Positions 20,260 to 63,720 of a stretch of DNA of 64,000 bases are shown here, piece after piece (positions within the stretch are counted from its first letter, which is position 1; the number at the start of each line of letters is the position of its first letter). The position numbers were made by a program, and so were the translations under genes. This stretch comes from Candidatus Freyarchaeum deiterrae. Lineage in GTDB: Archaea; Asgardarchaeota; Jordiarchaeia; Jordiarchaeales; Jordiarchaeaceae. The notes beneath the pieces were generated by a model. The model was given only the letters and a program-made list of their open reading frames with translations, ran no database searches and had not been told where the DNA came from. The stretch is from contig CP147778.1 of NCBI GenBank assembly GCA_037305845.1, positions 1,568,001-1,632,000 of the forward strand. The letters are read 5' to 3'.

Positions 20260-21469
20260 TTACTTTCTTCCAATCCATCCTATCTCTTTTATAGTTTCGC
20301 CGGTTTCAATAACTTCAAAAGCCTTTTTCAATACATCTTTCTGTTCTTGTACGGTGACATCTCTGCCACCTAGACCTGCTATAAATTCCAGCACAGGCGG
20401 CCTCTTATCCTCTGTATATAGCGCAGCTTTAATCTCAGATGCTGATGCACCGCCTTTTCCTGCTGAAAGGTTTCTGTCTATTACTGAAATAGCTTTAACG
20501 CGACTAGCAATTCTGCGTATCTCCTCTTCAGGAAAAGGTCTAAAAGTCCTCAGCTTCACTGATCCTGCTCTGTAGCCTTCCTCTCTTAACTCGTCGACAG
20601 CTACCATAGCTTGGTCAGCAAGAGAACCCATACAGAAAATCACCGCGTCTGCATCTTGACACCGATATTCTTCGACCAAATCACCGTGATATCTTCCAAA
20701 TTTCTTTTTGAAATCAGAGGCAACCTCCACGATTTTTCTTTTAGCGTTTTCATGTGCTAAATGTATAAGATACTTGAACTCGTAAAACCAATCATCAGGG
20801 TTCTGTAGATTTCCATAAGTAATGGGGTTATCTATGTCTATACCTATATGCGTTGGATTATATGGAGGAATGAAAGCGTCAACCTCTTCTTGTTCTGGAA
20901 TCACGACTGGTTGAGAGGTATGACTAATAGTGAATCCCTCATAACAAACCATCATTGGTAGAAGAATCTCTTGATCTTCTGCAATTTTAAATGCTTGTAT
21001 AATTGAATCGAACGCGTCCTGATGATTGGCACAATAAACTTGCATCCAGCCAGTATCTCTTTGAGAAACCGAATCGTTGTGATCCGACCAGATGTTCCAA
21101 GGTGGTCCTAAAGCTCTATTAACTACAGCCATAACAATAGGCAAACGCGAAGACGCAGCCCAGTGAACCATCTCATGCATATAGATTAAACCGTGGGCAG
21201 AAGTAGCGGTAAACGTTCTAACCCCAGCGAGAGAAGCGCCGACGCAAGCTGCTAAAGCAGAATGCTCAGATTCGACACGCACAAATTTGGCATTCAATTC
21301 GCCACCATCAACAAGGTCCGACAACTTCTCTACAATACCAGTCTGCGGCGTTATTATCCCCGAACAAGAATCTTGCTCAGTTTGGATAAGCCGCTATAAC
21401 TGCGGGTCTCGATAAAGCAGCAGCGTAAGCCGCAGCATAATTTCCGGTTGTTATCACAGTTTTTGCCAT
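20260..21469 (-). CDS. porA: 2-oxoacid:ferredoxin oxidoreductase alpha subunit, interrupted by a 28-nt BHB intron; join(21382..21469, 20260..21353), 393 aa
   Basis: ATG at 21469 overlaps the upstream stop. Exon 1 reads MAKTVITTGNYAAAYAAALSRPAVIAAYP; removing 21354-21381 gives ...AAYPITPQTGIVEKLSD, continuing into the 354-aa ORF (ESEHSA, TATS, NRA). Confidence 0.92.
21354..21381 (-). other. BHB mRNA intron in porA (28 nt)
   Basis: GCGGCUU-AUCC-AA^A-CUGAGCAAG(AUU)CUUGUUCGG-GGAU-AA^U-AACGCCGC: 4-bp central helix, two 3-nt bulges, inner and outer helices. Confidence 0.88.
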
Positions 21470-22398
21470 TACGCTTCCTCCTTTTCTCTAACTGAGTGCA
21501 TGTTCTTTTTTGGACAAACAGATGCACAAACGCCACAACCTTTACAATAGGTATAATTAATTACAGGATATCCTTCCTCGTCAACACTAATCGCGTTTTC
21601 TGGGCAGAACATCCAACAAGCCAAACAACCATTACATTCTTCTCGATCATAAACTGGTTTAAAAACTCTCCACTCACCAGTTATTCCCATACTTGCCTCT
21701 GAAGGTTTGGAAACTGGTATCGGCGGCAGATCACCCCAAGTCTGAAATTGTGAAACTCTCACCCGCCTGGAAACAGGCATACTGCCCTCAATGTACTGCT
21801 CCTCCGGCACAACATGTTCCACTGTCTTTTCATAAGCTTTTTCAACTGCCTTAAGATTCTTTTCGCCTTCACCACCACTAAATATGCCACTTAAGGCCTC
21901 CAACATAGAATCCAAACTGATTAACCCCGTAGCCTTCGCAAAAGCACCGAGCATGGGTGTGGCAGAAAGTGCCAGCCCCGCCACTTCCAAACCAAATTCT
22001 ATAGAAGTAGAAGTAGCGTCCACAGTAAAAATTTTGGCACCCTTAGGAAGTTTTCCAATCTTGCTAACGGTGTCAGAGTTACCTGGAGTATTAATCACAA
22101 GGATTCCGTCAGTTTTTAAACCATCAGTAATGTTAACCATACCAGATTCAAACAATGTGGGATCAACAACAATCACAATATCAGGAGTATATACATTAGA
22201 ATGGATTCGAATCGGCTCTTTTGAAAACCTTGTATAGGCTGCCACAGGAGCACCACGGCGTTCAGCGCCGAAAAAGGGTATTGTTTGGACTCCTTGGAAG
22301 CCTTCATGGAACGCTGCCTCAGCCAATGTTCTGGCAGCTGTTACTGTGCCCTGGCCACCGCGTCCATGCCATCGTGTCTCGTAAACTTTAGCAGGCAT
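21469..22398 (-). CDS. 2-oxoacid:ferredoxin oxidoreductase gamma-delta fusion
   Basis: HGRGGQG, FGAERRGAP (gamma); TGEWR..KP and two CxxCxxCxxxCP motifs (delta). Confidence 0.92.
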   Translation of the reverse strand: MPAKVYETRWHGRGGQGTVTAARTLAEAAFHEGFQGVQTIPFFGAERRGAPVAAYTRFSKEPIRIHSNVYTPDIVIVVDPTLFESGMVNITDGLKTDGILVINTPGNSDTVSKIGKLPKGAKIFTVDATSTSIEFGLEVAGLALSATPMLGAFAKATGLISLDSMLEALSGIFSGGEGEKNLKAVEKAYEKTVEHVVPEEQYIEGSMPVSRRVRVSQFQTWGDLPPIPVSKPSEASMGITGEWRVFKPVYDREECNGCLACWMFCPENAISVDEEGYPVINYTYCKGCGVCASVCPKKNMHSVREKEEA

Positions 22399-22648
22399 TT
22401 ACGTACCTCCAAGCTGAAGTGTTCTTATCTTAAATTGTTTGATTTATTAGGGATACACAATTTTGTACTTAAAACAGTTTTGGGTAATAAAATTTAACTA
22501 GATAGGAGAGACACAAAACATTTTTAACACTTAAAATTTACGCAAGAGGGCTGAAAACAAATATGCAACCGTCATTACGCACTAACTTTTTAAGTAAACA
22601 ATCTTTTGTTTTACCACTCAAAAAGCTAAGAGAAAGGGAATTAGAAAA

Positions 22649-23560
22649 ATGGCATATAAAGCACTACATGCTGAAGCTTCTGAGGAGCTTTGGCTACCAG
22701 GAAGTTCCGCATGTCAAGGATGCGGGTCAACACTGGCTTTGAGATGGGTTCTAAAAGCTTTAGGAAAAAAAACCGTCGTGGTAGCACCCGCCTCCTGCGC
22801 GAACGTTTATGTCGGATGGTGGCCCCGTTCATCTGCGGGCGTGACATATTTCGACATGGCATTCGCCGCCGGCGGAGCCGCGGCTTCAGGAATTGCAGCA
22901 GCCCTAGACTATCTGAACAGGAAAGATATTACTGTATTAACATGGGCAGGCGACGGAGGATCGGTAGATATCGGGATTCAGGCGTTGAGCGGTGCCGCTG
23001 AGAGAGGTACTAATTTCATTTACATATGTTACGACAACGAAGCTTACATGAATACGGGAACTCAGAGAAGTGGCTCTACTCCACTAGGTGCTTGGACCAC
23101 TACGACGCCCTTCGGTAAAAAACAAAAAAAGAAGGACTTAGCCATGATCATGGCTGCTCACAATATTCCTTATGTTGCCACTGCAACGCCTAGCTATCCA
23201 AAGGACCTTTATGAAAAAGTGAAAAAGGCGAAGGATATAGAAGGCACTAAGTACATTCACATTCTGGCGCCTTGTCCTCCTGGCTGGCGGTTTGATACCG
23301 AGTTAATAGTGGATATTGGCAAATCAGCTGTAGAGACAGGTATGTGGGTTCTTTATGAGATTGAGAACGGCAAATTCAAATTGAGCTCTCCTAGTGAGCG
23401 ATTGTTAGATCCATCAAAAAGGAAACCAATTGAGGAATACATTAGACTTCAGGGTAGGTTCAAGGACATTAAGGACGAGGAAATCCAAGAACTCCAGCGT
23501 GGAGTTAATGAACAGTGGGAAAAGTATAAGAAAATGGAAGAAGGCTGCGGCACATTTTAA
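22649..23560 (+). CDS. porB: 2-oxoacid:ferredoxin oxidoreductase beta subunit
   Basis: ACQGCG, GDGG..DIG, DNEAYMNTG, PCPPGW. Confidence 0.93.
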   Translation: MAYKALHAEASEELWLPGSSACQGCGSTLALRWVLKALGKKTVVVAPASCANVYVGWWPRSSAGVTYFDMAFAAGGAAASGIAAALDYLNRKDITVLTWAGDGGSVDIGIQALSGAAERGTNFIYICYDNEAYMNTGTQRSGSTPLGAWTTTTPFGKKQKKKDLAMIMAAHNIPYVATATPSYPKDLYEKVKKAKDIEGTKYIHILAPCPPGWRFDTELIVDIGKSAVETGMWVLYEIENGKFKLSSPSERLLDPSKRKPIEEYIRLQGRFKDIKDEEIQELQRGVNEQWEKYKKMEEGCGTF

Positions 23561-23779
23561 AACAAGTAGTTATTTTTTAGAGCAGCCTCTAACTTTGCCA
23601 CCTTTTTTGAGGTATATTTATTAGTAACATATATTCCAAATTTTATTATCCCAAAATTAACGGAATAGGCGAATCTATCTGCCGAATCAAAATATTAACT
23701 TATCGTACTCTTTATAGGATGTTTTACTCCAAATAATTTGGAGGCTCCTATAGCAGTAGGGTACTTTCAGAGGTGTACT

Positions 23780-24055
23780 GTGTTGTCTGAGGAAAATACA
23801 ATTTTCATTGGAAGTAAAGGTGTTATGGCTTATGTTTTAGCCTGCGTTACGCAGTTAAACAAGGGCAATAAGGACATTGTGTTAAAAGCAAGAGGTAGAG
23901 CTATTAGTCGAGCTGTTGATGTTGCAGAAATTTTGCGAACCAGATTCGTAAGCGATCTCAAGGTAAAGGAAATTAAAATAAGCACAGAGCAAATCAAAGA
24001 GTCCGAGGGAGGCACCGCGAACGTTTCTGCTATAGAGATCAGTCTGGGCAAGTAA
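23780..24055 (+). CDS. albA: Alba chromatin protein
   Basis: [32 protein letters not shown]; start at GTG/TTG 23780-23783 after GAGGTG. Confidence 0.95.
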
Positions 24056-24266
24056 AGAATTCAAATGCATTGACTAGGATTCAAGTATTTTTATTTCCAA
24101 CTGCTCTCATGATTGAATCAAGAGGTATATGGTCAGAGCAGCCAGTATAGAGATTTGAAAAAGTATAGGAAAACCTGCATGAAGAGCAGTTTTTTGTTTT
24201 CTTTTTTGTTAAGGAAGAAAAATCAAATAGGGAATTGTAGGTGCTGACTTTTCGTTTGTGGTCGGC

Positions 24267-25190
24267 TTAAGTTAAATTCTGTAATTTAATTAATTCTTCC
24301 CATTTTTTATCAACGTAGTCCTGCATCTCTTGTATTAATGATTCTTGACGTTTTGGCTTGAATAAGTGACTGAACTTACCCTGGTATTTTAGGTACTCTT
24401 CAACCGGCTTTTTCTTAACAATATCCTTCGTTATTTTGTACTTTCCGTTTTCAACCTCGTAAAGTGGCCAGTAACGGGTAAGTACAGCTTCTCTAGCTAT
24501 CTCTATTGTTAATTCTGATTCAGTTCTCCATCCTCTAGGACAGGGAGCCAAAATTATTATGAATGAGGGGCCTTCAACCGCAACCGCTTTACGAACTTTT
24601 TTTATCAAGTCTAAGGGGTAGGCCGGGTTCGCAGTAGCGGCGTAGGGGATGTCATGCGCAACCACAATTTTCATAATATCCTTCTGAAATCGAACTTTAC
24701 CTGGGGTTACTTTACCCGTAGGGCTGGTCGTTGTCCACCCAAACTTTGGTGTAGCACCGCTCTGTTGAATACCGGTGTTCATGTACGCTTCATTAGTATA
24801 ACAAATGTACGTAAAATTATGACCCCGCTCCAACGCACCAGACAAAGCCTGCAAACCGATATCATATGTGCCGCCGTCTCCAGCTATAGCGATTACACGA
24901 TTATTCGTCTTCGGAATTCTGCCTTTATGTTGTAGAACTTTAAGTCCCACTTCCACGCCGGATGCCGCCGCGGCGGTGCACTCGAAAGCGGTATGTATCC
25001 AAGGGACGCTCCATGCCGTGTAGGGGTAGGGCGTAGTTGCTACTTCAACGCAGCTTGTAGCGTTAACTATTATGGGGGGTTTTTCAAGAGCCGTGAATAC
25101 TTGTCTTAGTGTTATTGCAGCTCCACAACCCGAACACAATCTATGTCCTGGTGTAAAATATTCTTGTGTAGGTAAACTTTTTAGGGACAT
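24267..25190 (-). CDS. porB: 2-oxoacid (pyruvate):ferredoxin oxidoreductase beta subunit, second set
   Basis: GHRLCSGCG, GDGGTYDIG, NEAYMNTG, PCPRGW. Confidence 0.93.
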   Translation of the reverse strand: MSLKSLPTQEYFTPGHRLCSGCGAAITLRQVFTALEKPPIIVNATSCVEVATTPYPYTAWSVPWIHTAFECTAAAASGVEVGLKVLQHKGRIPKTNNRVIAIAGDGGTYDIGLQALSGALERGHNFTYICYTNEAYMNTGIQQSGATPKFGWTTTSPTGKVTPGKVRFQKDIMKIVVAHDIPYAATANPAYPLDLIKKVRKAVAVEGPSFIIILAPCPRGWRTESELTIEIAREAVLTRYWPLYEVENGKYKITKDIVKKKPVEEYLKYQGKFSHLFKPKRQESLIQEMQDYVDKKWEELIKLQNLT

Positions 25191-25195
25191 AGTTT

Positions 25196-26407
25196 TTACG
25201 CTCCATCATAAGTTACGTTTATACATCCTGGGCCTCTGCAGCCCACGATTTTGTAGTTCTCTTCAATCTTGTCTTTTTTGGCAACTTCGAGAAGTATTTC
25301 GGAAACTTTTTCGAAATGTTCGGTTCTTGTGTCTCTCCCGCCAAGGCCTGTGGGGAACCCCATAATATGGGGGCGGTCTTTGAGCTCATATAATGCGGAT
25401 CTTGCTTCCATACTCAGTGCGCCACCCATTGATCCGAAACTAATGTTTCGATCTATTACTCCAACAGCCTTTATGTTTTTGAGTGATTTTTGTAAGTCCT
25501 CGACTGGGAAGGGGCGGAATACTCGAAGTTTAAGGAGGCCTATCTTTTTCCCCTCTTTTCGCAGCTTATTAACTGCTTCTTGGGCGGTTCCTGCTAGTGA
25601 TCCTATGGTTAATAATGCGACTTCTGCGTCCTCCATTTTGTATTGAGAAATGACCTCGTAATTTGTGTCGAATCTGTTGTTGAAGTCGCTGAATACTTTT
25701 TTGATGACTTTTAGAGAGTTTTGTGTGGCTACTTCTTGTTGGACTTTGATTTCGGGGTAGTATTCGGGCCCGCCGACGCATCCAACTGTTACTGGGTTAT
25801 CTACATCTACTGAGGTATCTGCTTCTCGGAGGGGTAGAAAGTCGTCGATATCTTCTTGATCCAGAAGTTCTAAACCCTCTGTGGCGTGGCTTACGATGAA
25901 GCCGTCGTGGCAGGACATTACCGGTAGCAGGGTGCCTTTGTCTTCCGCTATTCTGTATGCCTGTATGATGGCGTGGTATGATTCTTGGGCGTTCTGGTTA
26001 TAGATTTGTATCCAGCCTGAGTCTCTCACTCCCATGGAGTCGCTCATGTCGTTCCAGATGCTCAGAGGGCTGTTCAATGCTCTGTTGGATACTCCCATAA
26101 CTATTGGTAGTCTAAAAGAAGAGGCGATAAACATCATCTCAAACATCAGAGCAATTCCTTGAGAGGCGGAGGCGGTGAATACTCTTGCTCCAGTCAGAGA
26201 GGCGCCTATACATGCTGCCATTGCTGAATGTTCGGATTCCGCGGATATAAGCTCGGCGTCGATTTCACCATTTGCATAATACTGAGCTAATTCTTCAACG
26301 ATCTGGGTTTGGGGAGTTATGGGGTACATGGCGATTACGTCCGGTCTGCATTGTTTTACCGAATGGGCTACAGCTTCATTTCCAGTTAATGCGGTTAGTT
26401 TTGCCAT
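25196..26407 (-). CDS. porA: 2-oxoacid (pyruvate):ferredoxin oxidoreductase alpha subunit, second set (no intron)
   Basis: GNEAVA, YPITPQT uninterrupted, ESEHSA. Confidence 0.94.
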   Translation of the reverse strand: MAKLTALTGNEAVAHSVKQCRPDVIAMYPITPQTQIVEELAQYYANGEIDAELISAESEHSAMAACIGASLTGARVFTASASQGIALMFEMMFIASSFRLPIVMGVSNRALNSPLSIWNDMSDSMGVRDSGWIQIYNQNAQESYHAIIQAYRIAEDKGTLLPVMSCHDGFIVSHATEGLELLDQEDIDDFLPLREADTSVDVDNPVTVGCVGGPEYYPEIKVQQEVATQNSLKVIKKVFSDFNNRFDTNYEVISQYKMEDAEVALLTIGSLAGTAQEAVNKLRKEGKKIGLLKLRVFRPFPVEDLQKSLKNIKAVGVIDRNISFGSMGGALSMEARSALYELKDRPHIMGFPTGLGGRDTRTEHFEKVSEILLEVAKKDKIEENYKIVGCRGPGCINVTYDGA

Positions 26408-26410
26408 TTT

Positions 26411-26701
26411 TTATTCTTCCTCCATTTCTATCGCTTTCACAGGGCATTCTTGGCAACATATTCCACAACCTTTGCAGTAAAAATAATTAATTTTGACCTT
26501 GTTTTCCTCTCTTTCTATGGCTCCTTCAGGGCAGTAAATCCAGCATAGTAGACAGTTGTTGCATTTGTTTTCTTTTAGTACAGGTTTTTTTCCTTCTCTC
26601 CAGTCGCCGGTTTTGTATTCTCTGGCATTACCTGACTCTGTGATGTACCCACCTTTGGGAATCTCGTTCCAAGATTTTAGTTTCTTTTCAGATTCGCTCA
26701 A
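26411..26701 (-). CDS. porD: 2-oxoacid:ferredoxin oxidoreductase delta subunit
   Basis: TGDWR, two 4Fe-4S motifs, YCKGCGIC. Confidence 0.93.
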   Translation of the reverse strand: MSESEKKLKSWNEIPKGGYITESGNAREYKTGDWREGKKPVLKENKCNNCLLCWIYCPEGAIEREENKVKINYFYCKGCGICCQECPVKAIEMEEE

Positions 26702-27255
26702 CCCATCTTTACCTCCTCATACGCCCTTTTTATCGCATTTATGTTTTTTTCCGCCAAGTCTTGTCTGAATCTTTCTTTGGTCACCTCAATGATGGTGTTC
26801 AAACTTACGATTCCTGTAGCTTTTGCTAAGGCTCCTAGGATGGAAGTATTGGTTATTGAATTGCCTAGGGTTTCCACTGCGATTTTTGTTGCGTTAATTG
26901 TTGCAACCTTGTTATTTACTTTCAACTCGGATTTTATTTGAGGGGGATTTTTATCGGTGTTAACGATTATGATTCCGTCTTTCTTCAGACCCTCTGTGAC
27001 TTTTTCAACTTTTAGTAGTGTGGGATCCAGTACAACAACGATATCAGGGTCGTAGATCTGCGATCTGTTAAGTATCGGCTCATCACTTACTTTGGTGAAT
27101 GCCTTTATTGGTGCCCCTTTTCTCTCTGCTCCAAAGCTCGGAAAACCTTGAGCCATTTTTCCTTCCTTTATAGCAGCTTCTGTAACCAGTCTACTTGCAG
27201 TGACTACTCCTTGTCCTCCTCTACCATGGAATCTAATTTTAATAACATCGCCCAA
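26698..27255 (-). CDS. porC: 2-oxoacid:ferredoxin oxidoreductase gamma subunit
   Basis: HGRGGQG, FGAERKGAP. Confidence 0.93.
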   Translation of the reverse strand: MGDVIKIRFHGRGGQGVVTASRLVTEAAIKEGKMAQGFPSFGAERKGAPIKAFTKVSDEPILNRSQIYDPDIVVVLDPTLLKVEKVTEGLKKDGIIIVNTDKNPPQIKSELKVNNKVATINATKIAVETLGNSITNTSILGALAKATGIVSLNTIIEVTKERFRQDLAEKNINAIKRAYEEVKMG

Positions 27256-27491
27256 AGGGTTTCCTCCAACTTTTTTAGAATAATTTTCTTTGGTGTTATT
27301 CCCCTATGATTGTTAACTTCGAAGAGGTCTTTTGTTTATAATGAATTCAGATTATCGGGGGTATTAAATCGTTATGCTAAAAATGTGGGTTATGCATAGA
27401 ACAGTTTACGCTCACTTTTTTTAAGTATTACGCTTTTCATCATCTTTTTGGAGCATCTACTAGTGCGATTTTTATTTATTTAAATACCTTT

Positions 27492-29336: not shown

Positions 29337-29630
29337 AGACTACCCTTCCAAAGTTAATAATGAACGGGGGCGCAACCTTTTTTCTTTAGCCATTGAAGTC
29401 GGGGCATTATTAAATTTTGCCCAGACAATTCCTCTATATAAACAATGACCTCAATTGTTAGAAGTTCAAAAAGCTATGCACTCTAATAGTATAAAAGTTA
29501 ACTTTAGCCTCCTGCTCAAGAAGGTTTCAAAACTTTGAGGTAATTTTAATTAAATAGTTACTTTTATGAACCAAATTAGTTAAAAAAACATTAATTTACC
29601 AAGATGAAATATTAAATTGGAGGGATTTTA

Positions 29631-30059
29631 ATAGCCGGTTATCGTTTTCTGGGGCACACAGCAGATGTTAAAGTAGAAGCCTATGGTAAAACAATCAATG
29701 AAGCCTTTCAAGAAGCAGCCCTGGCGCTAACCGAAGTAATGACAGACACATCGAAAATACACCCAATAATAAAGCGAAAAATAGAAATTGAAGCCGAAGA
29801 TCCACAATCCTTACTCTACGAATGGCTAGAGGAATTCATTTATCTATTTGATTCCCAGGGACTAATTTTCTCAAAGTTTAACGTCGAAAACATCCAACAA
29901 ACAGAAGGAAAATTAAAACTAAACGGAGAAGCCGCCGGAGAAGAATACGATGAAGAGAAACACCCACAAAGAACCGCAATAAAAGCAGCAACATACCATG
30001 AAATGAAAATCAAACAATCCCCAAAAAAAACAATTTTAGAATTTGTATTGGACATTTAA
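29631..30059 (+). CDS. Archease (RtcB tRNA-ligase cofactor), apparent ATA start
   Basis: Frame extends upstream of the ORF-track ATG to IAGYRFLGHTADV (HTAD motif); C-terminal IKAATYH...VLDI; GGAGGG 6 nt before ATA; in-frame TAA at 29613. Confidence 0.88.
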   Translation: MAGYRFLGHTADVKVEAYGKTINEAFQEAALALTEVMTDTSKIHPIIKRKIEIEAEDPQSLLYEWLEEFIYLFDSQGLIFSKFNVENIQQTEGKLKLNGEAAGEEYDEEKHPQRTAIKAATYHEMKIKQSPKKTILEFVLDI

Positions 30060-30106
30060 TTTATGCCAAATCCATGCTTTTGAAACTCAAATTTACAAGA
30101 AAGATA

Positions 30107-30205
30107 TGGCGCAGGGAGAGGGATTCGAACCCCCGCATCCCTTACGGGATACTGGCTCTCAAGGCCTACGCTTGAAGGAGATTCCTCATTCAATCAGCGC
30201 CGTTT
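30107..30205 (-). repeat. att-like partial copy of tRNA-Ser(UGA): 3' ~99 nt including the 29/30 intron
   Basis: Direct repeat of 50246-50344 with 8 mismatches; lacks the 5' acceptor and D-stem strands. Confidence 0.9.
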
Positions 30206-30390
30206 CCAGACACCTTTCCAGTGGATCCATAAAGATAGGGTTACATGAGGGGGTGTTCTAAAACTCAATCCTCCGGAAGCCTAGTACCTTAGCTTCGTTT
30301 TCTTTTTTTGAAATTAATTTAAATATAAGTTTAAAAATTTTTTAAAAAACCTTAAATATCCCATAAACAAAATCTTTATACATTGAATGA

Positions 30391-31419: not shown

Positions 31420-31598
31420 TTTTTGCCTTTTTTAATCCCTTTTTTTATTTTTTCAAGATTTATAATCGCTTCTTTTTAAATTTAAAGTAATCTGCATCTT
31501 GTAACCCTATGAATACTCACATTCCTATGTTCAGTTTAATAGGAGGGTTTATGTTTTTTATTTATTTGGTAAATTCGCAGAATAAATACAAAACGCTT

Positions 31599-32438: not shown

Positions 32439-32450
32439 CTCAACACCTGC

Positions 32451-44580: not shown

Positions 44581-47285
44581 TATGGAGGATAAAAGGCTTA
44601 TAGAAGTTGATTTCCCATTAAAAGAAGTAAGTGAAGAATCAGCGAGGGAGAAGAGCATTCATCGTGGTCATATTTCCGCCCTTCACATTTGGTGGGCTCG
44701 TCGACCACTAGCTGCGTCTAGAGCAACTACTTTTGAAGCTTTAGTTCTTGTGCCAGATAATCATGAAAAGTTAATGAAAAAACTCGAGTTTGTTGCAGAA
44801 CTTTCGAAATGGGAAAACTCTCTGAACCAAAATTTAATAGAAAAGGCTAGAGGAGAGATTAGAGATTTTTTTGGTGAAAGAATACCTAAAGTCTTAGATT
44901 GTTTCGCTGGCGGAGGAGCAATCCCTTTAGAGGCGCTAAGGTTGGGATGCAACACTTATGCGTTGGAATACAACCCTGTTGCTGTTTTGATACTTAAGGC
45001 TATACTCGAATATCCCCAAAAGTTTGGAAAAGGAAAAACTACAGTAAAAAGAGAGCTTCATTCAGCGAACAATCAGCTCATTGACGATGTTAAAAAATGG
45101 GGAAACTGGGTATTGGAGGAAACTAGGAAAGAAATCGGAAAGTTTTATCCACCAGACCCTGACGGAAGCACTCCTGTGGGTTATATATGGGCAAGGACTG
45201 TAAGATGCAATAATCCCTCCTGCGGCACTGAAATCCCTCTTGTAAGGCAAACTTGGCTTGCTAAGAAGAATGTCAAGAAGGTTGCTTACAAGGTTATTTC
45301 TGAAAACAATAAAATTGGGTTTAAAATTAAGGAAGATAATGGAATAGACTTTGACCCAGAAATAGGCACTGTTTCAAGAGCAAAGGTCATTTGCCCTTGT
45401 TGTAGAGGGGGGCTATCAGATAAAGAAGTAAGAAAACAATTTGTTGATAGAAAAGCGGGGCAGATGATGGTTGCAGTCGTGCTTCATCATTCGAAAAGGC
45501 CAGGCAAAATCTACCGGCCCTGTACTGAAAATGATATACACGTTTTCAGAGAAGCCGAGAAATATCTACAGAAGAAGAGAAAAGACCTCTTTGACAAATG
45601 GGGGTTCGATCCTGTGCCAGATGAACCAACACCAGAAGGAAAGGGTAGCGGGGCTGAAAGAGCATTTTCAGTACGTAGCTATGGTCTCGATACCTGGGGT
45701 GATCTTTTCAACTCAAGACAGAAATTAGCGTTAATAACCTTTGTAGAAAAAGTGAGAAATATAAATAAGAGTATAATCGAGAAAGGGTACGAGGAAGAAT
45801 ATGCAAAGGTCGTGGCGAGTTATTTGGCACTGGGAGTCGATAAAGTAGCAGATTATAATAATGTCTTATGTCAGTGGAGAAATAATCTTGAGACTGTTGG
45901 ACATGCCTTCGCAAGGCAAGCGTTACCAATGCTTTGGGATTATGTGGAGGGAAATCCAATAACGGGTACTTCAGGAACATGGTCAGGCGCAATTGAATGG
46001 ATTGGAATGGCAGTCGATGCTTCCGAAAAAGTTTCTTCTTTCTCTGCTACTTTATCTCTATCCTCTGCCACAGATCTTCCATATTCCGACGACTTCTTCG
46101 ACGCAGTAATCACTGATCCACCCTATTACGACAATGTGCCTTATTCTTACCTGTCTGATTTCTTTTACGTTTGGCTCAAAAGGACAATAGGGGATTTATA
46201 CCCTGAATTCTTCTCAACTCCTCTTACACCCAAATCAAAGGAGATCGTGGCTTATTCTCATGGTAAGAGTGGCTTAAGAAGGAAAAAGATCCTTTGAGGG
46301 TATGATTACTCAATCCTTTAAAGAAATCCATAGAGTTTTGAAGTATGATGGTATAGCCGTAATAGTGTTTGCTTACAAATCTACCGAGGCATGGGAAACC
46401 ATCATTAATAGTCTTCTAAAATCAGGTTTGGTACTCACAGCTTCTTGGCCAATTCATACAGAGATGAAGGCAAGGCTTAGAGCTATGGAAAGCGCAGCCT
46501 TAGCTTCTTCTGTCTATATGGTGTGTAGAAAGCGCACGGAAGAAAAGATTGCATATTTTAACGAAATAAAAGAAGAGATTGAAAGTAGAATCAAGGAAAA
46601 ACTTACCCAGTTTTGGCAACAGGGCATAAGCGGTGCGGACTTCTTTGTTAGCGCAATAGGTCCTGCTGTAGAAGTATTTGGAAAATACTCAAAGGTCGAA
46701 AAATTTTCGGGTGAAGAGGTTTCTGTTCAGGAATTGTTAGAATATGTGAGAAAAATTGTGAGTGAATTCGCTTTGGAAAGAGTTTTAAAAAGAGCGGATC
46801 TGGGAGGAATAGACGCTGAAACAAGATTCTACTTGCTGTGGAGATGGACATTTGGCAATGCCAAAGTGCCTTTTGACGACGCAATAAAACTTTCCAGACC
46901 CATGGGCGTTGAGCTTACAAAATTATGGGATGGTGGAGAACTCGTCAGAAAAGAAAAAGGATCCGTCAAAGTCCTTACTTCTCAAGACAGGGCAAAAGAT
47001 CCTTCCTTCTTAAGAAAAACAAAGTTCAAATCCATGATAGATGTTCTTCATTACGTGTTAGTGTTGTGGGAACATGGAGAAAGAGAAAAAGTCAAGGAAA
47101 TCTTGAGTGAGACAGGGTATGCTGGAAACGAGATATTTTGGCAAACTGCTCAAGCCATTTCAGAAATTCTTCCAAAAGGGGATAAAGAAAAGCAATTACT
47201 TCAAGGATTTCTTTACGGTAAAGAAGTTTATGTTAAAGCAGCTAGAGGAAAAACAAGTTTACTTGATTATATGGAGAGTGAATAA
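44573..47285 (+). pseudogene. DUF1156-family adenine DNA methyltransferase with Zn ribbon, frameshifted near 46277
   Basis: [27 protein letters not shown] in the 574-aa part; the C-terminal 327 aa continue in another frame ([14 protein letters not shown]). Confidence 0.8.
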
Positions 47286-50245: not shown

Positions 50246-50383
50246 TGGCGCACGGAGAGGGATTTGAACCCCCGCATCCCGCAAGGGATACTGGCTCTCA
50301 AGGCCTACGCTTGAAAGAGATACCTCATTCAACCAGCGCCGTTTGGTGGCACATTTCATGTGCTTCCGCTTGGCTATCCGTGC
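50246..50383 (-). tRNA. tRNA-Ser(UGA) with two introns (50344-50363 in the D-loop; 50305-50333 at 29/30), encoded CCA
   Basis: Spliced: GCACGGA TA GCC AAGCGGAAAAC GGC G CTGGC CTTGAGA GCCAG T ATCCC TTGC GGGAT GC GGGGG TTCAAAT CCCTC TCCGTGC G CCA. Confidence 0.9.
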
Positions 50384-51429: not shown

Positions 51430-52305
51430 ATGAAACTTTCAAAAGAGGTACTTAATATTGAGCCAGAATTTGTTGAGAAGCGTGTTCTTAAATTTATTCG
51501 TGCTCGGGTTACTGATGTGGGTGTTTCAGGAGTGGTTATGGGTCTGAGTGGAGGTATTGATTCTTCGGTTGTTGCTGCTCTTTGTGTAAAAGCTTTGGGC
51601 CCGGAAAGAGTATTAGGGCTGATGTTACCCGAGAAGGATAGCGATCCTAACGATATTAAAGATGCTGTAAAAATAGCTAAGCAGCTTGAAAATCCCTATG
51701 AAGTAGTAGATATAACTTCAATAATTAATGCTTGCCGGGAAACCTATTTAAAGGATGCCTCGGATGCTCCTACAGTAGTGGGAAATGTGAAGGCACGTGT
51801 ACGCATGTTAACACTTTATTGCTATGCAAATAAACTGCATCGCTTGGTCGTTGGTACTGGAAATAAAAGTGAAATATTAATCGGATACAGTTAACGGTTG
51901 ATCACCGTAACTGCCGAAAACTTTACCAAGTACGGCGACGGCGGCTCAGATATATTACCAATAGGTGATCTTTATAAAACCCAAGTTCGTCAACTGGCAG
52001 ATTTCCTAGAAATCCCAAAAGAAATAATTAAGAAAACTCCTACTGCGGGACTTTGGAAGGGTCAAACGGACGAAGCCGAAATTGGTGTTTCATACGATGT
52101 TTTGGACCTGATACTTTATGGTTTAGAACATTGGATGAATGAGTCGGAAATAGCGGAAGAACTCAATGTACCACTTGAAAAAGTGAATAAAATAGTAGAA
52201 ATGTGGAGGAAAAGTGAACATAAAAGAAAAGGCCCGGTTGTCTTTAAATTATCACATAGAACTCCAAGTTTAGACTGGAGGATTCCATTTAACTATTATG
52301 TGTAA
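51430..52305 (+). CDS. nadE: NAD+ synthetase interrupted by a 33-nt BHB/BHL intron; join(51430..51886, 51920..52305), 280 aa
   Basis: GLSGGIDS, NVKARVRM, GTGNKSE; splicing restores IGYFTKYGDGG; PIGDLYKT, PTAGLW.GQTDE, SEHKR. Confidence 0.93.
51887..51919 (+). other. BHB/BHL mRNA intron in nadE (33 nt, contains in-frame TAA)
   Basis: UCGG-AU^A-CAGUUAACGGU(UGAUC)ACCGUAACUG-CCGA-AA^A-CUUU. Confidence 0.88.
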
Positions 52306-52328
52306 AATAATGAAAAGGAGTGAATGAA

Positions 52329-52583: not shown

Positions 52584-52613
52584 GAAAGATATGGGGGCTT
52601 TTATTCTCTTTTT

Positions 52614-53522: not shown

Positions 53523-53846
53523 TTTTCACGCGCCTCAATGTAAAGCATTTGCAAGGTAACGGCGGTATTTACATCCGGGGTGAATATAAAGTACTAATAT
53601 TTTGCATAGTCTTTTTTGTTTTTAAGATAAAAACGTTTCCCAAGTTCTATGCTTTAAATCGTGTTGTGTCGAAATAATAGTGGTTCTACATAAAAAGCCG
53701 AAAAATATAAGAGCTAATAATAATCCCCTGAACCTTAAAAAATATACAAGTCCATGTTTAAATTTGTACAGCACCGAAGGTGTAAAACTTTATAAAAACT
53801 AGTATAGGTATACTTTTCTAAGATTGATAGGAAGCGATGAAAAGAC

Positions 53847-54548: not shown

Positions 54549-54594
54549 GTGACCTATCATTCACCTATTGAAAGTTTTTAGAGACAAATATTTT

Positions 54595-56895: not shown

Positions 56896-57104
56896 ATTTA
56901 AACCCCGTGCTAATTAGGTTTCATTTATTTTAAATACTTATTGAACAACATATTGAAAAAAATTTTTGTTTTTTACTTATTCCCATCTTTGATTAAATGT
57001 ATAAACGTAATTGTACAGCAAGCCGCCTCTCCTCACCATCTTACAAAGCACCCTATAGATAAAACGAATTTAAATGAATTAGAAATTAATGAAGAATTTA
57101 AAAT

Positions 57105-57833
57105 TCATGAAGGACTAATCTGCCTTAATTCTTTAATCATGTCCTCAACGGATTCTATTTTGGATATTGCCAATGGAATGCCTTCCTTCTTTGCCAGCTC
57201 GATTGCAAGAGGATCAGGATCTACAAGCCCATGTAAAACGATCAGACTTGGTTTGCGCGCATTAATTTTTATGGTGATTAACGGGGAGCGCCCCGTACTA
57301 GCATTTGTGAAAATAACTCCTCTTTCGCTAGATGCATCGTACAACTTAAGAAAAGCATCACCAGAAAGCTCTCTAAAAGCACTAATACTATCAACAACTA
57401 CATATCCAAATAAATTCCTATCTAGAAACTCCTCTCCTACAACACATTCCGCCCGGATAGTAGAACAAAACTGCCGGGCATTTACAGGAGTAGTGAATTC
57501 CCGTATATCTAGAATTATGTCCGTAGGAATCTCAACACTCATTAACCGCCCAAACGCAACAGTTATTTGCCCTCCATTCTTTTCATCGATTGCAAGTAGC
57601 CCCTCAACAAAACGCTTTATAGTTTTAGTTCCAGGAGACTTTCTCCTGCTTCCCTCATAATCACTAATAACTGAAGGAGAAACATCCAAATATTCTGCTA
57701 AAATAATTTGAGGTACATGAAAAAGTTCCCGCCACTTACGCATCATCTTGCCCGGATCATCTGAAAGAGAAACCTCACCTGCCACTCTTCGAGCTAACCT
57801 CTCTGAACTACTTTTATAGATGTTCATATTCAA
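57105..57833 (-). CDS. Archaeal XRE-HTH transcriptional regulator (COG1709-like)
   Basis: AGEV.LS.DPG...RKWRE.F, SPSVISDYE..RRKSPG, FTN.STGRSP. Confidence 0.85.
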   Translation of the reverse strand: MNMNIYKSSSERLARRVAGEVSLSDDPGKMMRKWRELFHVPQIILAEYLDVSPSVISDYEGSRRKSPGTKTIKRFVEGLLAIDEKNGGQITVAFGRLMSVEIPTDIILDIREFTTPVNARQFCSTIRAECVVGEEFLDRNLFGYVVVDSISAFRELSGDAFLKLYDASSERGVIFTNASTGRSPLITIKINARKPSLIVLHGLVDPDPLAIELAKKEGIPLAISKIESVEDMIKELRQISPS

Positions 57834-57967
57834 GTTTCATAGAATTAACGCACATAAATATTTCGGCTATTATCGAAAATTATAAAAATCAGAAATTCGA
57901 AATCCTCAACAAAAATCTTATCTGTTAAAACAACTTAACCCAAACAAAGGATTTTCTAATAAACTAT

Positions 57968-58071
57968 GGGCGGATGGTCTAGAACTCTTCCTATGAGAAG
58001 AGGAGTGGAAAGTTTGGTATGATTCCTGGTTCGGGACCAGGAGGCCGTCGGTTCAAATCCGGCTCCGCCCA
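57968..58071 (+). tRNA. tRNA-Pro(CGG) with one 30-nt intron at 15/16 (57983-58012)
   Basis: Spliced: GGGCGGA TG GTCT AGTTTGGTA TGAT T CCTGG TTCGGGA CCAGG AGGCC GTCGG TTCAAAT CCGGC TCCGCCC A; CCA not encoded. Confidence 0.9.
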
Positions 58072-58214
58072 TCAAAAATACAAGGTATTTATTCTCCACT
58101 TTGGGGCGCTGATTCCGGCATTTCATTTAAGGAATTTTCCGGCAAATATTTTTAAGTAGATACAATTCTAAGTGTAATCAATTCGAATTAAGCTAATTTA
58201 GCGGTTAAAGGAGA

Positions 58215-60014
58215 TTGCTGAAATTGGCGGTTAAAGAAAGAATCGGAAAGATAATTAGAGTTACCGGACCTGTAATCGAAGCGGAAGGACTAATCGGAAT
58301 TCAAATGTATGAAGTATGCCGAGTTGGAGACGAAGAATTAATTGGCGAAGTAAACAGAGTTGAAGGTTCAAACGCAACAATTCAGGTTTACGAAGAAACG
58401 ACGGGCTTGAAGCCGGGCGAAAAGGTCGTAGCTACTGGAGCACCTCTATCTGTAGAGCTGGGTCCTGGTCTTATAGGTCAGATTTTTGACGGCATTCAAA
58501 GACCATTACCTATTCTCAAAGAGCAGACTGGAGACTTTATTCATAGGGGAGTGTTAGCAAAAGCTCTGCCTCGAGATAAAAAATGGAAATTTACACCAAC
58601 TGTTGAAGAAGGTGCTACGGTATCTCAGGGAGATATTGTAGGACTCGTACCCGAAACAACTACAGTAACCACTAAAATATTGGTACCGGTAGGCATCAAC
58701 GGTAAGATTACCAGCTTGGTCTCAGAAGGGGAATATACTATAGAGGACACCATAGCGCGTATTAAAACACCCCGTGGAGAGCAGGAAATCACCCTTATGA
58801 CTACTTGGCCTGTACGGCAGGGGCGTCCTTATCTCAGAAAAATGGGATCAACAACCCCCCTGATAACCGGACAGCGTGTAATCGATACTTTCTTCCCCAC
58901 AGCGAAAGGCGGAACAGCAGCAATACCCGGAGGGTTTGGCACAGGAAAAACAGTAATGCTTCACCAGCTTGCAAAATGGGCAGACAGCCAAATAGTAGTA
59001 TACTGTGGTTGTGGTGAAAGGGGTAATGAGATGACGGAGGTTTTGGAAGATTTTCCAAAGCTGGAAGACCCACGCACTGGTGAACCGCTTATGCAGCGTA
59101 CAATACTGATCGCTAACACTTCAAACATGCCCGTAGCCGCTCGAGAAGCCTCTATCTACACTGCGATTACTTTAGCCGAGTATTTCAGGGATCAAGGATA
59201 TGACATTGCGTTAATGGCCGATTCAACTTCGAGATGGGCTGAGGCACTGAGAGAGATAAGTGGAAGACTCGAAGAAATGCCTGGTGAAGAGGGGTATCCA
59301 GCATATTTGGCCTCGCGTCTCGCAGAGTTTTATGAAAGAGCTGGACGCGTTGAAACATTAGGCTCCACAGAGAGCAACCAAAGACTAGGTTCAATAACCG
59401 TTACCGGAGCTGTGAGCCCACCAGGAGGCGACTTTTCCGAGCCTGTTACCTCAAACACACTCCGCGTGGTGAAGGTCTTTTGGGGGCTAGATAAGGATTT
59501 AGCAAGCAGAAGGCATTTCCCAGCGATTAATTGGTTAAATAGTTATAGTTTGTATATTGAAAATCTAAAGGAATGGTTTTCGGCTAATGTTAATAAAGAA
59601 TTTTTAGATTTACGAAGTGAGGCTATGACATTGCTTCAGCGCGAAGATGAACTCCGTGAGGTTGTACAATTAGTTGGCCCTGACGCGCTTCCAGAAAGTG
59701 AGCGTGTGGTGCTTGAGGCAGCCCGTATGATCCGTGAGGATTACTTGATGCAATCAGCTTTGCATCCTGTTGATACTTATTGTAGCCCAGAAAAGTCGTA
59801 TGAGATGCTGAAAATTATTTTGAAATTTTATAATCAAATGAAGAACGCAGTGGAAAAGGGGGTTCCTATCACTTCGATTCAGAAAATGAGTGTACTTAGC
59901 GATATTTCTCGTTTTAAAATTGTGCCCCCAGATGAAGTTGACAAGCGTGTTAATGAAGTGTTTAAAAAGATTGACGCAGAATTCGCATCTCTGACAGTAG
60001 AAAGCCTAGCTTAA
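58215..60014 (+). CDS. atpA: A/V-type ATP synthase subunit A
   Basis: [52 protein letters not shown]. Confidence 0.97.
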
Positions 60015-60225
60015 ATTTTCCCACATTTCTATTTTTCCATAAAAATTTCTTATATTTTTATCTTTATTTCATATTCTTGATTAGCAATATAAATTCAGAA
60101 AATCTTAATAGTCTATTGTCAGAGACTAGGAAATTAGCTTAATTGCAAAATTAATTAGACCTTTCCCAAGAATAAATTAAGAATTAGTAAGAGAGATTTT
60201 TCAATATAGTTTTGTTATTTTATTT

Positions 60226-60549
60226 TCAAACCTTGATTTCTATTCCCACGGCTCGTTTGATTAGAGTTAATATTGGATCCTCACCTTTTCTTTCACCTAA
60301 CCGGCTCGGAATTTCTAGTATAATAGGAGTTGGGCTGTCTTCGGTTAGTTTATTCAGAAAGGGGCGTATTTGATCTGCTAAAATATCTGTTGTTATGATG
60401 AGCCCCACCTCTGGTTCCTGAAAAAATTCTCGTATCTTGTGCTGCGCTTCTTCCTTATTGTTTGTCTCGAATGTTTTCGAGACTCCTGCTAGTTTTAATC
60501 CCAATATAGTATCTTTGTCCCCGACAATAGCGATTTCCAAATTCTTCAC
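60226..60549 (-). CDS. atpF: A/V-type ATP synthase subunit F
   Basis: IAIVGDKDTILGLKLAG, P.ILEIPS, IKRAVG. Confidence 0.9.
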   Translation of the reverse strand: MKNLEIAIVGDKDTILGLKLAGVSKTFETNNKEEAQHKIREFFQEPEVGLIITTDILADQIRPFLNKLTEDSPTPIILEIPSRLGERKGEDPILTLIKRAVGIEIKV

Positions 60550-60730
60550 CTTGATTTACTGAGTTTTTCTTTCCATTCCCCCAATAAGGGAAGGGGATTA
60601 ATATTCTTTATGCTTGAATTTAAAATCAAAACACATTATCGTGTTGTAAATGTGCTATCTTATATTGGTTAAAATTGTTTTTTACAGAGACTTGTACAAT
60701 TTTAGATTTCTCTCATTATTTGGGGGGAAT

Positions 60731-61195
60731 TTAGATATTAGCAACTATATCCTCGAACTCCATTATTAAGTTACAATATCTGCATCTAATTCTTACTGGA
60801 TCCTTGGATATAACTGTAAATGAGGGCTGGGCTGGCTCTCTACTATTTATAATACAGTTAGGATTAACACAGCGGGGAAAACCAGTAATAACGGAGGGTA
60901 GCGATACTCTTTGCTTTTCAACTACCTCGTAGTTACGAATAATATTGATTGTTGCTTTGGGGGAAATCAGTGCTATTTTGTCCACCTCTCGGGGGTCCAA
61001 CTCTCTTCCTTCAATTTTTACTACATCCTTTCTTCCTAATTTACTGCTAGGTGTATTAATCAAAATGCTTATCGTGTATCCTTCTTTACCAGTTAACCCA
61101 AGTATTTTAAAAACGTCCAAAGCGGTACCGGCGGATATATGATCAATTACCGTACCGTCACGAATTTTACGAATCCTAAGCTCCTTTTCGGTCAT
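60731..61195 (-). CDS. pyrI: Aspartate carbamoyltransferase regulatory subunit
   Basis: KIRDGTVIDHI, KDVVKIE, ATINII, C.NPNCI, C.YC; start at ATG 61195. Confidence 0.95.
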   Translation of the reverse strand: MTEKELRIRKIRDGTVIDHISAGTALDVFKILGLTGKEGYTISILINTPSSKLGRKDVVKIEGRELDPREVDKIALISPKATINIIRNYEVVEKQRVSLPSVITGFPRCVNPNCIINSREPAQPSFTVISKDPVRIRCRYCNLIMEFEDIVANI

Positions 61196-61476
61196 AAAAT
61201 GCCTCTCGAAATTAATTCTATAACATTTCAAGTGCATAAATAATTTATTACTCTTTGGTATAACTAACTCCAATTACACTCCAAAAGATTTGCAGTAACA
61301 CCAATCTAGATAAGAACTCTATTAAATAAAGCCTCATGAAACGACAAGTATAAGTATCATGAATAGATATTACCAATCGAGACAGCGACTTATGTTTTGA
61401 GAGAACCAAGTCATTAATAAAAAGGTTTAAATGAAGGTTTTAAAAGACAAATAAAATTAGAAAGAGGGAAAAAAAT

Positions 61477-61743
61477 ATGAGCGGTACCGCAGAAAAAATG
61501 GAACAAGCGATGTTTATTTTAAAACAAATCTCAGAGGATACTGCAACCCCCCGTAACATACGCAGAGCAGCGATACAAGCAATGGATGCGTTGCAGACTA
61601 ACGAGGATTCTTCGGCAGTTAAAGCCTCAAACGCTATATCCATACTGGATGAAGTATCACAGGACCCAAATTGTCCATTACATAGCAGGACAAAAATTTG
61701 GAACACAGTTTCGATATTAGAAACGATTAGCGACGAGGAGTAA
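61477..61743 (+). CDS. UPF0147 family protein
   Basis: D..TPRNIRRAA...AISILDEVSQDPN.P.H.RT.IW. Confidence 0.9.
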   Translation: MSGTAEKMEQAMFILKQISEDTATPRNIRRAAIQAMDALQTNEDSSAVKASNAISILDEVSQDPNCPLHSRTKIWNTVSILETISDEE

Positions 61744-61988
61744 TCTGAAAAATGTTTTGTTTAAAAAAGAAAATTGAAGCCCATAAATTAATTATTGGTA
61801 AAAGTATAAACACAGCTGTTCTTGCAAGTTTAATCAAATTCTTTGCAGCTTGACTTTTTCTAGATACATTTTGAAATCTAGAATTAATATGATATCATTT
61901 GGTTAATAAAGTCATATTTACAAATTTTAATATTTTTGATACAAAAAAACTATAAGTAATTGAGAACGATTATTTTTTGGTTTTATAA

Positions 61989-63416
61989 TTGACTCGGCAA
62001 TCAATTTTAATTAAAATTCGAGGAATATATTCAACAGCATTTACTAAAATTGTGAGAGACAGTGGATTTAAAATTACGCAAGCCACACCCGTACAAGTTG
62101 AAAGATTTAATTTAGAGAATAATTTTGAGCAGCCAGATGTGGATATAGTTGATTTCGAGAATAAACAGGGAGTTATAATTACCGGAGAAACCAGTAAAGT
62201 AAAAAAATTTGAAGAAGTATTAAGAACAGAACTCGAAGATGCAGTGTTTAGAATACCAATTATTAAATTGAACTCGCTGTATAAAGGAAAAGTAGTAAAA
62301 ATTGCAGGCAATAAAGCATTTGTTGATATTGGTAACTGTCACGCTCTTCTCCTAGACGAGGCAGTAAATGAAGGAGAAGAACATGTGATCGAAATTGTAA
62401 AAACAAATATACAAAATCCCATAGCAACAACCGAGATTTCAATAATCGGAAAGTATGTAATACTAATCGAGCAAGAAGGCATCAAAATCAGTAAAAAAAT
62501 CAGAAACAGCGAAAACAGACAAGAGCTATACTCACTGGGGGAGAAAATAAAACCAGATAACTGGGGGATAATTTTTAGGACCGGAGCAGCAAATCAAGAT
62601 CCAAACGTTTTAATTCAAGAAGTATCCGAACTAAACAAAAAAGCAAAGGAGTTAATGAAAAGAAAAAAAGAAACCACAAGCCCAGCACTTCTGTTGGAAG
62701 GCAATGAAAATATATTCATCGAGTTTACAAGCAAAGCTAAGAAAAAGCTGGATGATATCAGACAAGAAATCGTAAAAACCATTAATCAGCATCATTACTA
62801 TAAATCAATAGGACATGAATATTCTCTACTCGTTGACTTTGCAGAAGAAATTTTAACAAAATACCCAAAAATGGAAAATAGCGTCCTAGAAATTTTTAAC
62901 AAAATATACAACAGCGAATTTCCCAAAGAAGGTGACCCAATCCTAATCGAACACATAAAAATAAACGGCTATCAATTCATACTTTCCGGCATTCTAACCG
63001 ACATAGAACCCCACAATCACAATTTGGTTGTGAGACGGCAGTTTAAAGGCGGCGGATACTTTGATGGACTCAATACACCTAAGCAAACAGGAGACTACGG
63101 AATAACCGAAATCAAACTCGGATCCTGGAACCTACAAACAGAATATTACTCAAAAAATGGTGAATTTAAGGGAGCATACTACAACATAAACTCGGGAATA
63201 GAGTTTTATCCACCTAACAGACTTAGATACATAGACCTCGCTATAGACGTAATAAAATGGCCCAATGGAGAAGCAAAAATCATAGATAGAGAAGAACTCA
63301 ACGAAGCGTGCAAAAGCAAGCTAATATCAGAAAAGCTGAAAATAAAGGCTGAACAAGAAGCCGAGGGAATACTTGAAAAATTGGAAACGGAAAACAAAAC
63401 TAATAATTCCACATAG
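61989..63416 (+). CDS. FAU-1-like RNA-binding ribonuclease (RNase E/G-like plus DUF402)
   Basis: IRGIYSTA.T, HHYYK, IEH.K, G.FDGL, YYNIN...E....RYIDL.IDV. Confidence 0.85.
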   Translation: MTRQSILIKIRGIYSTAFTKIVRDSGFKITQATPVQVERFNLENNFEQPDVDIVDFENKQGVIITGETSKVKKFEEVLRTELEDAVFRIPIIKLNSLYKGKVVKIAGNKAFVDIGNCHALLLDEAVNEGEEHVIEIVKTNIQNPIATTEISIIGKYVILIEQEGIKISKKIRNSENRQELYSLGEKIKPDNWGIIFRTGAANQDPNVLIQEVSELNKKAKELMKRKKETTSPALLLEGNENIFIEFTSKAKKKLDDIRQEIVKTINQHHYYKSIGHEYSLLVDFAEEILTKYPKMENSVLEIFNKIYNSEFPKEGDPILIEHIKINGYQFILSGILTDIEPHNHNLVVRRQFKGGGYFDGLNTPKQTGDYGITEIKLGSWNLQTEYYSKNGEFKGAYYNINSGIEFYPPNRLRYIDLAIDVIKWPNGEAKIIDREELNEACKSKLISEKLKIKAEQEAEGILEKLETENKTNNST

Positions 63417-63534
63417 AGAAAAAATAATATATAATGGGAAAACTTTTAAAAAAACACGACCATTCTCCTTTAGAAAATCTAATAAAAATTTTTGTCTACA
63501 AATGAGCCCCAAAGTGTAATGTGGTATTAAAGTT

Positions 63535-63720
63535 GCGGGGATTTCCAAGTGGTCAAAGCCTGACGGGTGGCCAGAGGAGGCAGACAGGAATCAAATCCCT
63601 GGCCGAGGCTCAGGACCTGCTGGCGCAGAGGCTCTCTGAAAGCTAGAGCCGCGAAAGCCTTCGCGTGTTCGAATAGAAGCATCATAAAGATGCTCCTCGA
63701 GTGTCACGCTCCCCGCACCA
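63535..63720 (+). tRNA. tRNA-Leu(CAG) with four introns: 63557-63574 (21/22), 63584-63607 (30/31), 63629-63656 (variable arm), 63674-63703 (59/60); encoded CCA
   Basis: Spliced 86 nt: GCGGGGA TT TCC AAGTGGTCAAA GGA G GCAGG CTCAGGA CCTGC T GGC GCAG GCC TTC GCGTG TTCGAAT CACGC TCCCCGC A CCA. Confidence 0.88.

Follow-up and report, generated by a model that had tools for sequence, protein, structure and literature searches.

Bulge-helix-bulge introns in protein genes of a Jordarchaeal genome as probable substrates of the tRNA-splicing pathway

Interrupted protein and tRNA genes in one window

The window analyzed here is a stretch of 64,000 nucleotides (nt) from Candidatus Freyarchaeum deiterrae (positions 1,568,001-1,632,000 of a single-contig genome of 3,576,204 bp). 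A preliminary description of the window had placed nine short introns of the bulge-helix-bulge (BHB) type in it, two in mRNAs and seven in tRNAs, with lengths of 18-33 nt, and had taken the host for a probable Asgard archaeon. All nine sites were found at the kind of position described, and the host is confirmed as Asgard, of the genus Jordarchaeum/Freyarchaeum.

The first mRNA intron interrupts a minus-strand gene for the alpha subunit of a 2-oxoacid:ferredoxin oxidoreductase of the porA/vorA type. Exon 1 (21382-21469) begins with the ATG at 21469 and comprises 29 codons plus 1 nt. It is followed by a phase 1 intron of 28 nt (21354-21381) that shifts the frame within the sequence YP^ITPQ (the caret marks the point of interruption), and by exon 2 (20260-21353), which matches the Pfam families POR_N (17-229) and PFOR_II. 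The intron folds with ATCC and the bulge AA^A on one side of a 9-bp stem, and GGAT and the bulge AA^T on the other. The window has two oxidoreductase gene sets, and the alpha-subunit intron is present in one of them only; in the paralogue at 25196-26407 the YPITPQ sequence is uninterrupted.

The second mRNA intron is in nadE, on the plus strand. Exon 1 (51430-51886) matches positions 4-136 of Pfam NAD_synthase and exon 2 (51920-52305) matches positions 138-242. Between them lie 33 nt (51887-51919) with an in-frame TAA, within IG^YFTKYG, that fold as TCGG and AT^A paired with CCGA and AA^A. The Tyr restored by splicing corresponds to position 137 of the profile, the single position between the two exon matches.

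The seven tRNA introns lie in three genes. The tRNA-Leu(CAG) gene (63535-63720, plus strand) contains four BHB introns (63557-63574, 63584-63607, 63629-63656 and 63674-63703), and the tRNA-Ser(UGA) gene (50246-50383, minus strand) has one of 20 nt in the D-loop (50344-50363) and one of 29 nt in the anticodon stem (50305-50333). The tRNA-Pro(CGG) gene (57968-58070, plus strand) has a single D-loop intron of 30 nt (57983-58012), for which a 28-nt register is also possible. When the introns are removed ARAGORN calls a normal tRNA-Leu, tRNA-Ser and tRNA-Pro; when they are left in, tRNA-Leu is missed and tRNA-Ser is miscalled as Leu. Cutting after the second nucleotide of each bulge thus recovers the protein motifs and the cloverleaves, as judged by motif inspection, by Pfam for NadE and by ARAGORN for the tRNAs. 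The single architecture that the preliminary description gave to all the sites holds as a design, but at three of the seven tRNA sites a single pair of the central helix is mismatched, and the boundary in tRNA-Pro is ambiguous.

Introns across the genome

In a census that made no use of the motif, ~2.1 Mb of G006, a genome of the same order and another family, was tiled. A strong BHB was found in 10 of 30 frame-breaking insertions, compared with 8 of 503 in-frame insertions; the latter eight include four stop-containing mRNA introns and one insert in 16S rRNA. An independent scan combining the motif with open reading frames returned 17 sites scoring ≥16 at the true length, against two at one nucleotide longer and two at one nucleotide shorter. 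The verified total is 31 BHB introns in 26 protein genes, which is a lower bound, and the expectation that two introns within 64 kb would mean many more elsewhere has therefore been borne out.

The interrupted genes are fbp, alba, mvhD, hdrC, rtcB, gatE, cbf5, porA, nadE, moaE, tyrS, ahcY (three introns), queE (three), ychF, kae1, pcm, rps26e, selD, hypD and leuC, together with those for an HD hydrolase, a CxxC protein, a radical SAM protein, an EndoQ/PHP protein, an NADH:flavin oxidoreductase and a RuBisCO-like protein (two). Ten of the names are supported by Pfam, and the remainder are presumed from conserved motifs that we recognized. All 31 introns fall within 0.98-2.64 Mb, the region densest in conserved core genes. 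Their lengths are 20-191 nt with a median of 30-31, and every one disrupts the frame or holds a stop codon.

The geometry was tallied for 28 of the mRNA introns. The central helix is fully paired (4/4) in 25 of them and has three of four pairs in the other three, compared with full pairing at 2.1% of random positions, a contrast inflated by those sites that were ascertained through the motif. Over the 28 sites there are 98 Watson-Crick pairs, 11 GU pairs and three mismatches. The first bulge starts with A in 25 of the 28 and the second is mostly AA(A/T). All have the intron hairpin; the outer exon helix abuts directly at 23 sites, and at five, including nadE, it is relaxed. Reading on without splicing meets a stop within 0-17 codons at all sites, which is partly an outcome of the search design. 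All eight introns whose length is a multiple of three hold a stop, and four of these came from stop-dependent searches.

No convincing second genomic copy of any mRNA intron was found, the best being 17 nt of the cbf5 intron, at a place outside the tRNAs. The preliminary description had the introns spreading from tRNAs into mRNAs; no support for that direction was found, as no mRNA intron is similar in sequence to any tRNA intron. Motif scans for introns >50 nt performed no better than decoys, so long introns lacking a homologue will have been missed.

Some candidates were rejected (genome coordinates throughout). At 1241308 asnS is continuous, those at 1477305 and 850199 are gene junctions, and that at 1805166 is within 16S rRNA and so is not an mRNA intron. 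The last is a BHB-bounded insert of 90 nt (1805166-1805255) inside the 16S rRNA gene; the published Freyarchaeia genome is reported to have a short 16S, for which this insert may be the reason. Two further strong BHB candidates in protein genes, at 2434719 (31 nt) and 678105 (40 nt), both on the minus strand, have homologue support that is not decisive. The third ahcY intron (1876203-1876393) is, at 191 nt, far longer than the others and extensively structured inside (-65 kcal/mol); a small RNA could lie within it, or the remnant of a mobile element.

Conservation of the introns among relatives

All four congeners with coverage of the site have the porA insert, at a length of 33 nt, and it has the 28-nt length in the source genome and four further assemblies. 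It is absent from the other Jordarchaeales family and from the other Asgard genomes examined. Across relatives 99.4% of 160 pair cells are paired, compared with 41-53% for slid partners. Candidatus Jordarchaeum madagascariense, whose nadE is the closest (90%), also has the nadE insert, with one C-G to U-A change in the stem; the insert is absent from three other congeners, such that two of five examined genomes carry it.

Nine sites are common to the source genome and G006 at the same nucleotide and with different sequence (alba, gatE, cbf5, the radical SAM gene, pcm, EndoQ, selD, leuC and hypD). Sixteen sites are intact in G006, which has at least ten introns of its own, for example in EF-2, IF2, dnaG and leuD. 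Some introns are thus specific to the source genome, some are genus-wide and nine extend to the second family. Within the genus rtcB is interrupted in six of six genomes, whereas the sister family has it intact; alba is likewise interrupted in 6/6, from a family search over 150 Asgard genomes that was informative for the genus only. In every congener fbp is broken at one and the same profile position. The congeners have a single break in ahcY, where the source genome has three, and their rps26e is apparently intact, from which we infer that introns are still being gained or lost.

In cbf5 the intron splits the codon of the catalytic Asp after its first base, the same position as in Crenarchaeota (PMC2738675). 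Among 70 parsed metagenome loci of unassigned taxonomy, 27 have an insert of 17-41 nt at this site, and all 27 have a 4/4 helix. Five Asgard families, Atabeyarchaeia among them, have a short 5′ reading frame in cbf5, and most of the others have a full one. A pattern search matched the intron in one of five genomes, with a pattern too narrow to decide the other four. In all genomes of one Asgard genus the N-terminal domain match stops at profile position 47, with frames short or long; there the gene may be interrupted differently, upstream of the known site. In the 220 kb of Atabeyarchaeia examined there was one candidate, of 35 nt, in a nucleoside phosphorylase gene.

These comparisons bear on whether the inserts have simply inactivated genes or are errors of assembly. 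In favor of that view, the genome holds paralogues of both porA (41-44% identity) and nadE (31-35%), and the window also contains an ordinary frameshifted gene. Yet independently assembled genomes, both of congeners and of another family, carry inserts at the same sites, which counts against the assembly artefact that the preliminary description had named as a possible refutation. The interrupted genes include single-copy translation genes, and the codons flanking the introns are highly conserved, 6-10 of 10 residues being identical to the intact orthologue. No paralogue was found in the genome for fbp, rtcB, gatE, cbf5, tyrS, ahcY, ychF, kae1, pcm, rps26e, moaE, hypD or queE; since 13 or more of the interrupted genes lack one, they cannot all be dead. 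Conservation largely refutes inactivation or artefact, and we regard its probability as negligible.

A predicted route through EndA and RtcB

The genome contains the genes of the pathway that had been proposed from the window. There are two EndA paralogues, one of which (alpha) retains the Tyr/His/Lys triad and the specificity loop relative to the closest solved chain, 3p1z_B, which we take to be the catalytic subunit of Aeropyrum pernix EndA. In the group of Aeropyrum, EndA-dependent cleavage of cbf5 pre-mRNA has been reported (PMC2738675). RtcB is encoded by a single gene that is itself interrupted by an intron. An archease-like gene for a putative RtcB cofactor lies in the window (29631-30059, plus strand); its start codon is uncertain, with an HTAD motif upstream of the listed reading frame, which matches PRK00407 at positions 37-139, below the cut-off as a partial frame was supplied.

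We suggest that removal proceeds as follows. In the transcript four exon nucleotides would pair with four intron nucleotides, placing two 3-nt bulges and the intron hairpin on the flanks, the fold evident at the sites described above. A two-subunit EndA of the broad-specificity Aeropyrum type would then cut after the second nucleotide of each bulge, as expected from established EndA chemistry and the enzyme of the source genome. The exons would be joined by RtcB with archease, and as read from the gene sequences the full enzyme is encoded by the joined message only. The inserts are very probably true pre-mRNA introns removed by the tRNA-splicing pathway, and routine protein-catalyzed splicing of many mRNAs in Jordarchaeia is highly probable. 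The introns would have been gained one site at a time, apparently anywhere that a spliceable BHB can form.

Contigs with joined alba exons

Searching with Alba exon 2 gave mostly truncated products of 73-86 amino acids, plus two close full-length proteins. Among ~30 close members of the cluster no others are full-length and free of the insert, and the two belong to runs SRR28530378/79. Contig SRR28530378_12881 is identical to SRR28530383_13503 over 13,155 aligned bases except for the loss of the 30-nt alba intron, and SRR28530379_8677 is identical to the same contig over 8,041 aligned bases with the same exception; the intron-retaining counterparts for this species are contigs of runs SRR28530382/83. 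In a second species SRR28530378_181039 lacks the alba intron and SRR28530379_39746 has it, with three other differences; metagenome-assembled genome contigs, like SRR28530379, retain it. Both species are congeners of the source organism, with ~76% nucleotide identity over the region. The cut offsets allowed relative to the EndA rule are {-2,-1,0} at one junction and {0,1,2} at the other. Only 0 is common to both, and therefore only the EndA register fits both junctions.

The simplest reading is that the joined contigs represent cDNA of a highly expressed spliced message that outvoted the unspliced form. Alternatively they could be DNA alleles in which the intron has been lost, and so be uninformative on RNA splicing. 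The 13-kb contig covers genes on both strands, as DNA would, and an intron-less alba occurs among genomes of the sister family. But the site is interrupted in all six genomes of the genus, and the full-length forms are confined to two runs. Loss at the DNA level would require two species in one sample to lose the same intron with nothing else changed in 13 kb, and a deletion matching the EndA register so exactly would in turn imply that the template had been spliced. We therefore consider DNA alleles distinctly improbable.

Several observations weigh against splicing as the general explanation, or against the contigs as proof of it. The contigs could derive from RNA or DNA libraries, and give neither strand nor RNA level, and cases of DNA-level absence of the alba intron occur in the sister family, on contigs of up to 80 kb. 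No joined porA contig was found among the matches, and for ahcY neither a joined contig nor a close full-length protein was found. The motifs of hypD (-2.9 kcal/mol) and kae1 (-4.7 kcal/mol) are weak, rtcB, ychF and fbp each have a helix mismatch, and covariation of the porA pairs is not above a shuffle control. alba is the one gene with precisely joined contigs; splicing at the other 30 sites is predicted. The 392-residue ‘full-length’ porA matches were rejected as joined forms, being wrong-frame calls across the unspliced 28-nt intron.

Could the ribosome cross the hairpins by hopping or frameshifting, leaving the RNA uncut? The inserts all form hairpins, most of them with an early stop, and in this resemble bypass signals, of which T4 gene 60 is a known example. 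However, only 3 of the 26 genes have matched take-off and landing codons, and 1 of 26 has a slippery heptamer. Many introns interrupt a codon, and orthologous inserts differ in length modulo 3 while keeping the fold (28 and 33 nt in porA, 29 and 30 in rtcB). Moreover the geometry is that of the tRNA introns, and joined contigs exist. Such recoding is extremely unlikely. Three alba gene calls (L391, L395 and L405) read TAG as Gln, through the stop of the intron; on short contigs BHB introns can be mistaken for stop-codon recoding.

Group I and group II introns were rejected because a ribozyme core needs hundreds of nucleotides, compared with the 20-191 nt here, and no Rfam intron match was found in the window. 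Spliceosomal introns were rejected too, as the ends are mostly A...AA and not GU-AG.

Tolerated insertions or a regulatory layer

If the introns are real and spliced, they might still serve a mainly regulatory role, in which EndA and RtcB capacity gates translation, cofactor and energy genes and rtcB forms a feedback loop. This is compatible with the splicing proposed above and differs in purpose only. The rtcB intron is genus-wide, several other RNA-handling genes are interrupted (cbf5, kae1, queE, gatE, tyrS and alba), and stops are present in all of the introns divisible by three, with the reservation about stop-dependent searches given above. Which alba form prevails, joined or unjoined, depends on the sister run, and a regulatory role has been proposed for cbf5 (PMC2738675). 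Against this, the distribution is patchy even inside the genus, as nadE, rps26e and ahcY illustrate, the set of interrupted genes in the sister family is largely different, and no intron sequence is held in common. There is also a parallel and apparently neutral build-up in tRNAs (10.64898/2026.10.13.758758). A mainly regulatory role is thus unlikely. Because of the patchy distribution we favor tolerated insertions filtered for spliceability; the introns are probably such insertions, selected to stay spliceable, and not a regulatory program.

In a wider form of the regulatory proposal, dozens of core genes would be routinely spliced by EndA and RtcB as a regulatory layer, possibly ancestral to Asgard-TACK and prefiguring IRE1/RtcB splicing. 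A regulatory layer is suggested because rtcB is interrupted, so that RtcB must splice its own message, and a place in the Asgard-TACK ancestor because the cbf5 site is shared. We hold this to be doubtful, and a regulatory or ancestral reading is much less certain than multi-gene splicing alone.

Comparison with known systems

In IRE1/XBP1 (HAC1) splicing a short structured mRNA intron is cut by a protein nuclease, the exons are joined by a tRNA ligase and the frame is shifted; in animals the ligase is RtcB. There the nuclease and motif are different and there is one regulated target, and homology of the introns is not implied. This eukaryotic splicing is mentioned in PMC13149111.

A close likeness is to the BHB intron in cbf5 pre-mRNA of Sulfolobales and Desulfurococcales (PMC2738675), which is 16-44 nt long, is cut after the second bulge nucleotide and breaks a catalytic motif (PMC2738675). 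In the source genome the intron of cbf5 sits at the codon position known from Crenarchaeota, and EndA is similarly hetero-oligomeric. In Crenarchaeota a single gene is involved, whereas here there are at least 26, with up to three introns each and the ligase gene among them. Spliced cDNA and EndA cleavage have been shown for crenarchaeal cbf5 (PMC2738675), while the introns here are known from sequence. The 5′ untranslated region of Haloferax volcanii HVO_1309 also has an mRNA BHB intron cut by EndA (PMC7714728), but that is a single non-coding case, and a systematic search there found no introns in coding regions (PMC7714728). Interrupted tRNA genes of Freyarchaeia and Atabeyarchaeia are already in print, with introns of the same kind as the seven in the window, and those papers make no mention of introns in protein-coding genes (PMC11291895; 10.64898/2026.10.13.758758). 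As of 2009 introns in further archaeal coding genes were predicted and unconfirmed. A literature search, with most subscription papers outside its reach, found cbf5 and the Haloferax 5′ untranslated region as the only archaeal mRNA BHB introns.

The chemistry is known; what is new is the scale, the presence of several introns in one gene and a ligase gene that depends on its own product. The prevailing view is that archaeal coding sequences are free of introns save cbf5. At least 26 core mRNAs needing splicing, in the lineage closest to eukaryotes, would mean that intron-split protein genes can build up without a spliceosome, and the route by which introns arrive becomes testable on many dated gains and losses. 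The preliminary description had expected standard annotation to mislabel such genes, and truncated or wrong-frame products do stand in public databases. Asgard annotations thus contain key enzymes in these forms (here Alba and PorA), with consequences for metabolic reconstructions and marker-gene phylogenies.

Other features of the window

An alba paralogue lies between the two oxidoreductase gene sets (21469-27255). Convergent with porA, at 18909-20195, is a gene with synteny to a Clp1-type RNA 5′-kinase gene (PF16575) of congeneric contigs. Clp1 is linked to tRNA splicing in eukaryotes.

A partial 3′ copy of tRNA-Ser (30107-30205, minus strand) contains the same 29-nt intron (30166-30194), and is the tenth intron copy of the window. 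This copy and the full tRNA-Ser flank an island of 20 kb (30107-50383), and it is a probable attachment-site duplication. The island encodes a SNF2 helicase, a DUF1156 methylase, a DUF499 ATPase and a HerA/VirB4-like ATPase, a set that resembles an anti-phage module; no integrase was recognized among its genes. The DUF1156 methylase gene is the ordinary frameshifted gene mentioned above. It has a plain frameshift at ~46270-46305 (~46290) with no convincing BHB, and as an ordinary broken gene it provides a useful negative control.

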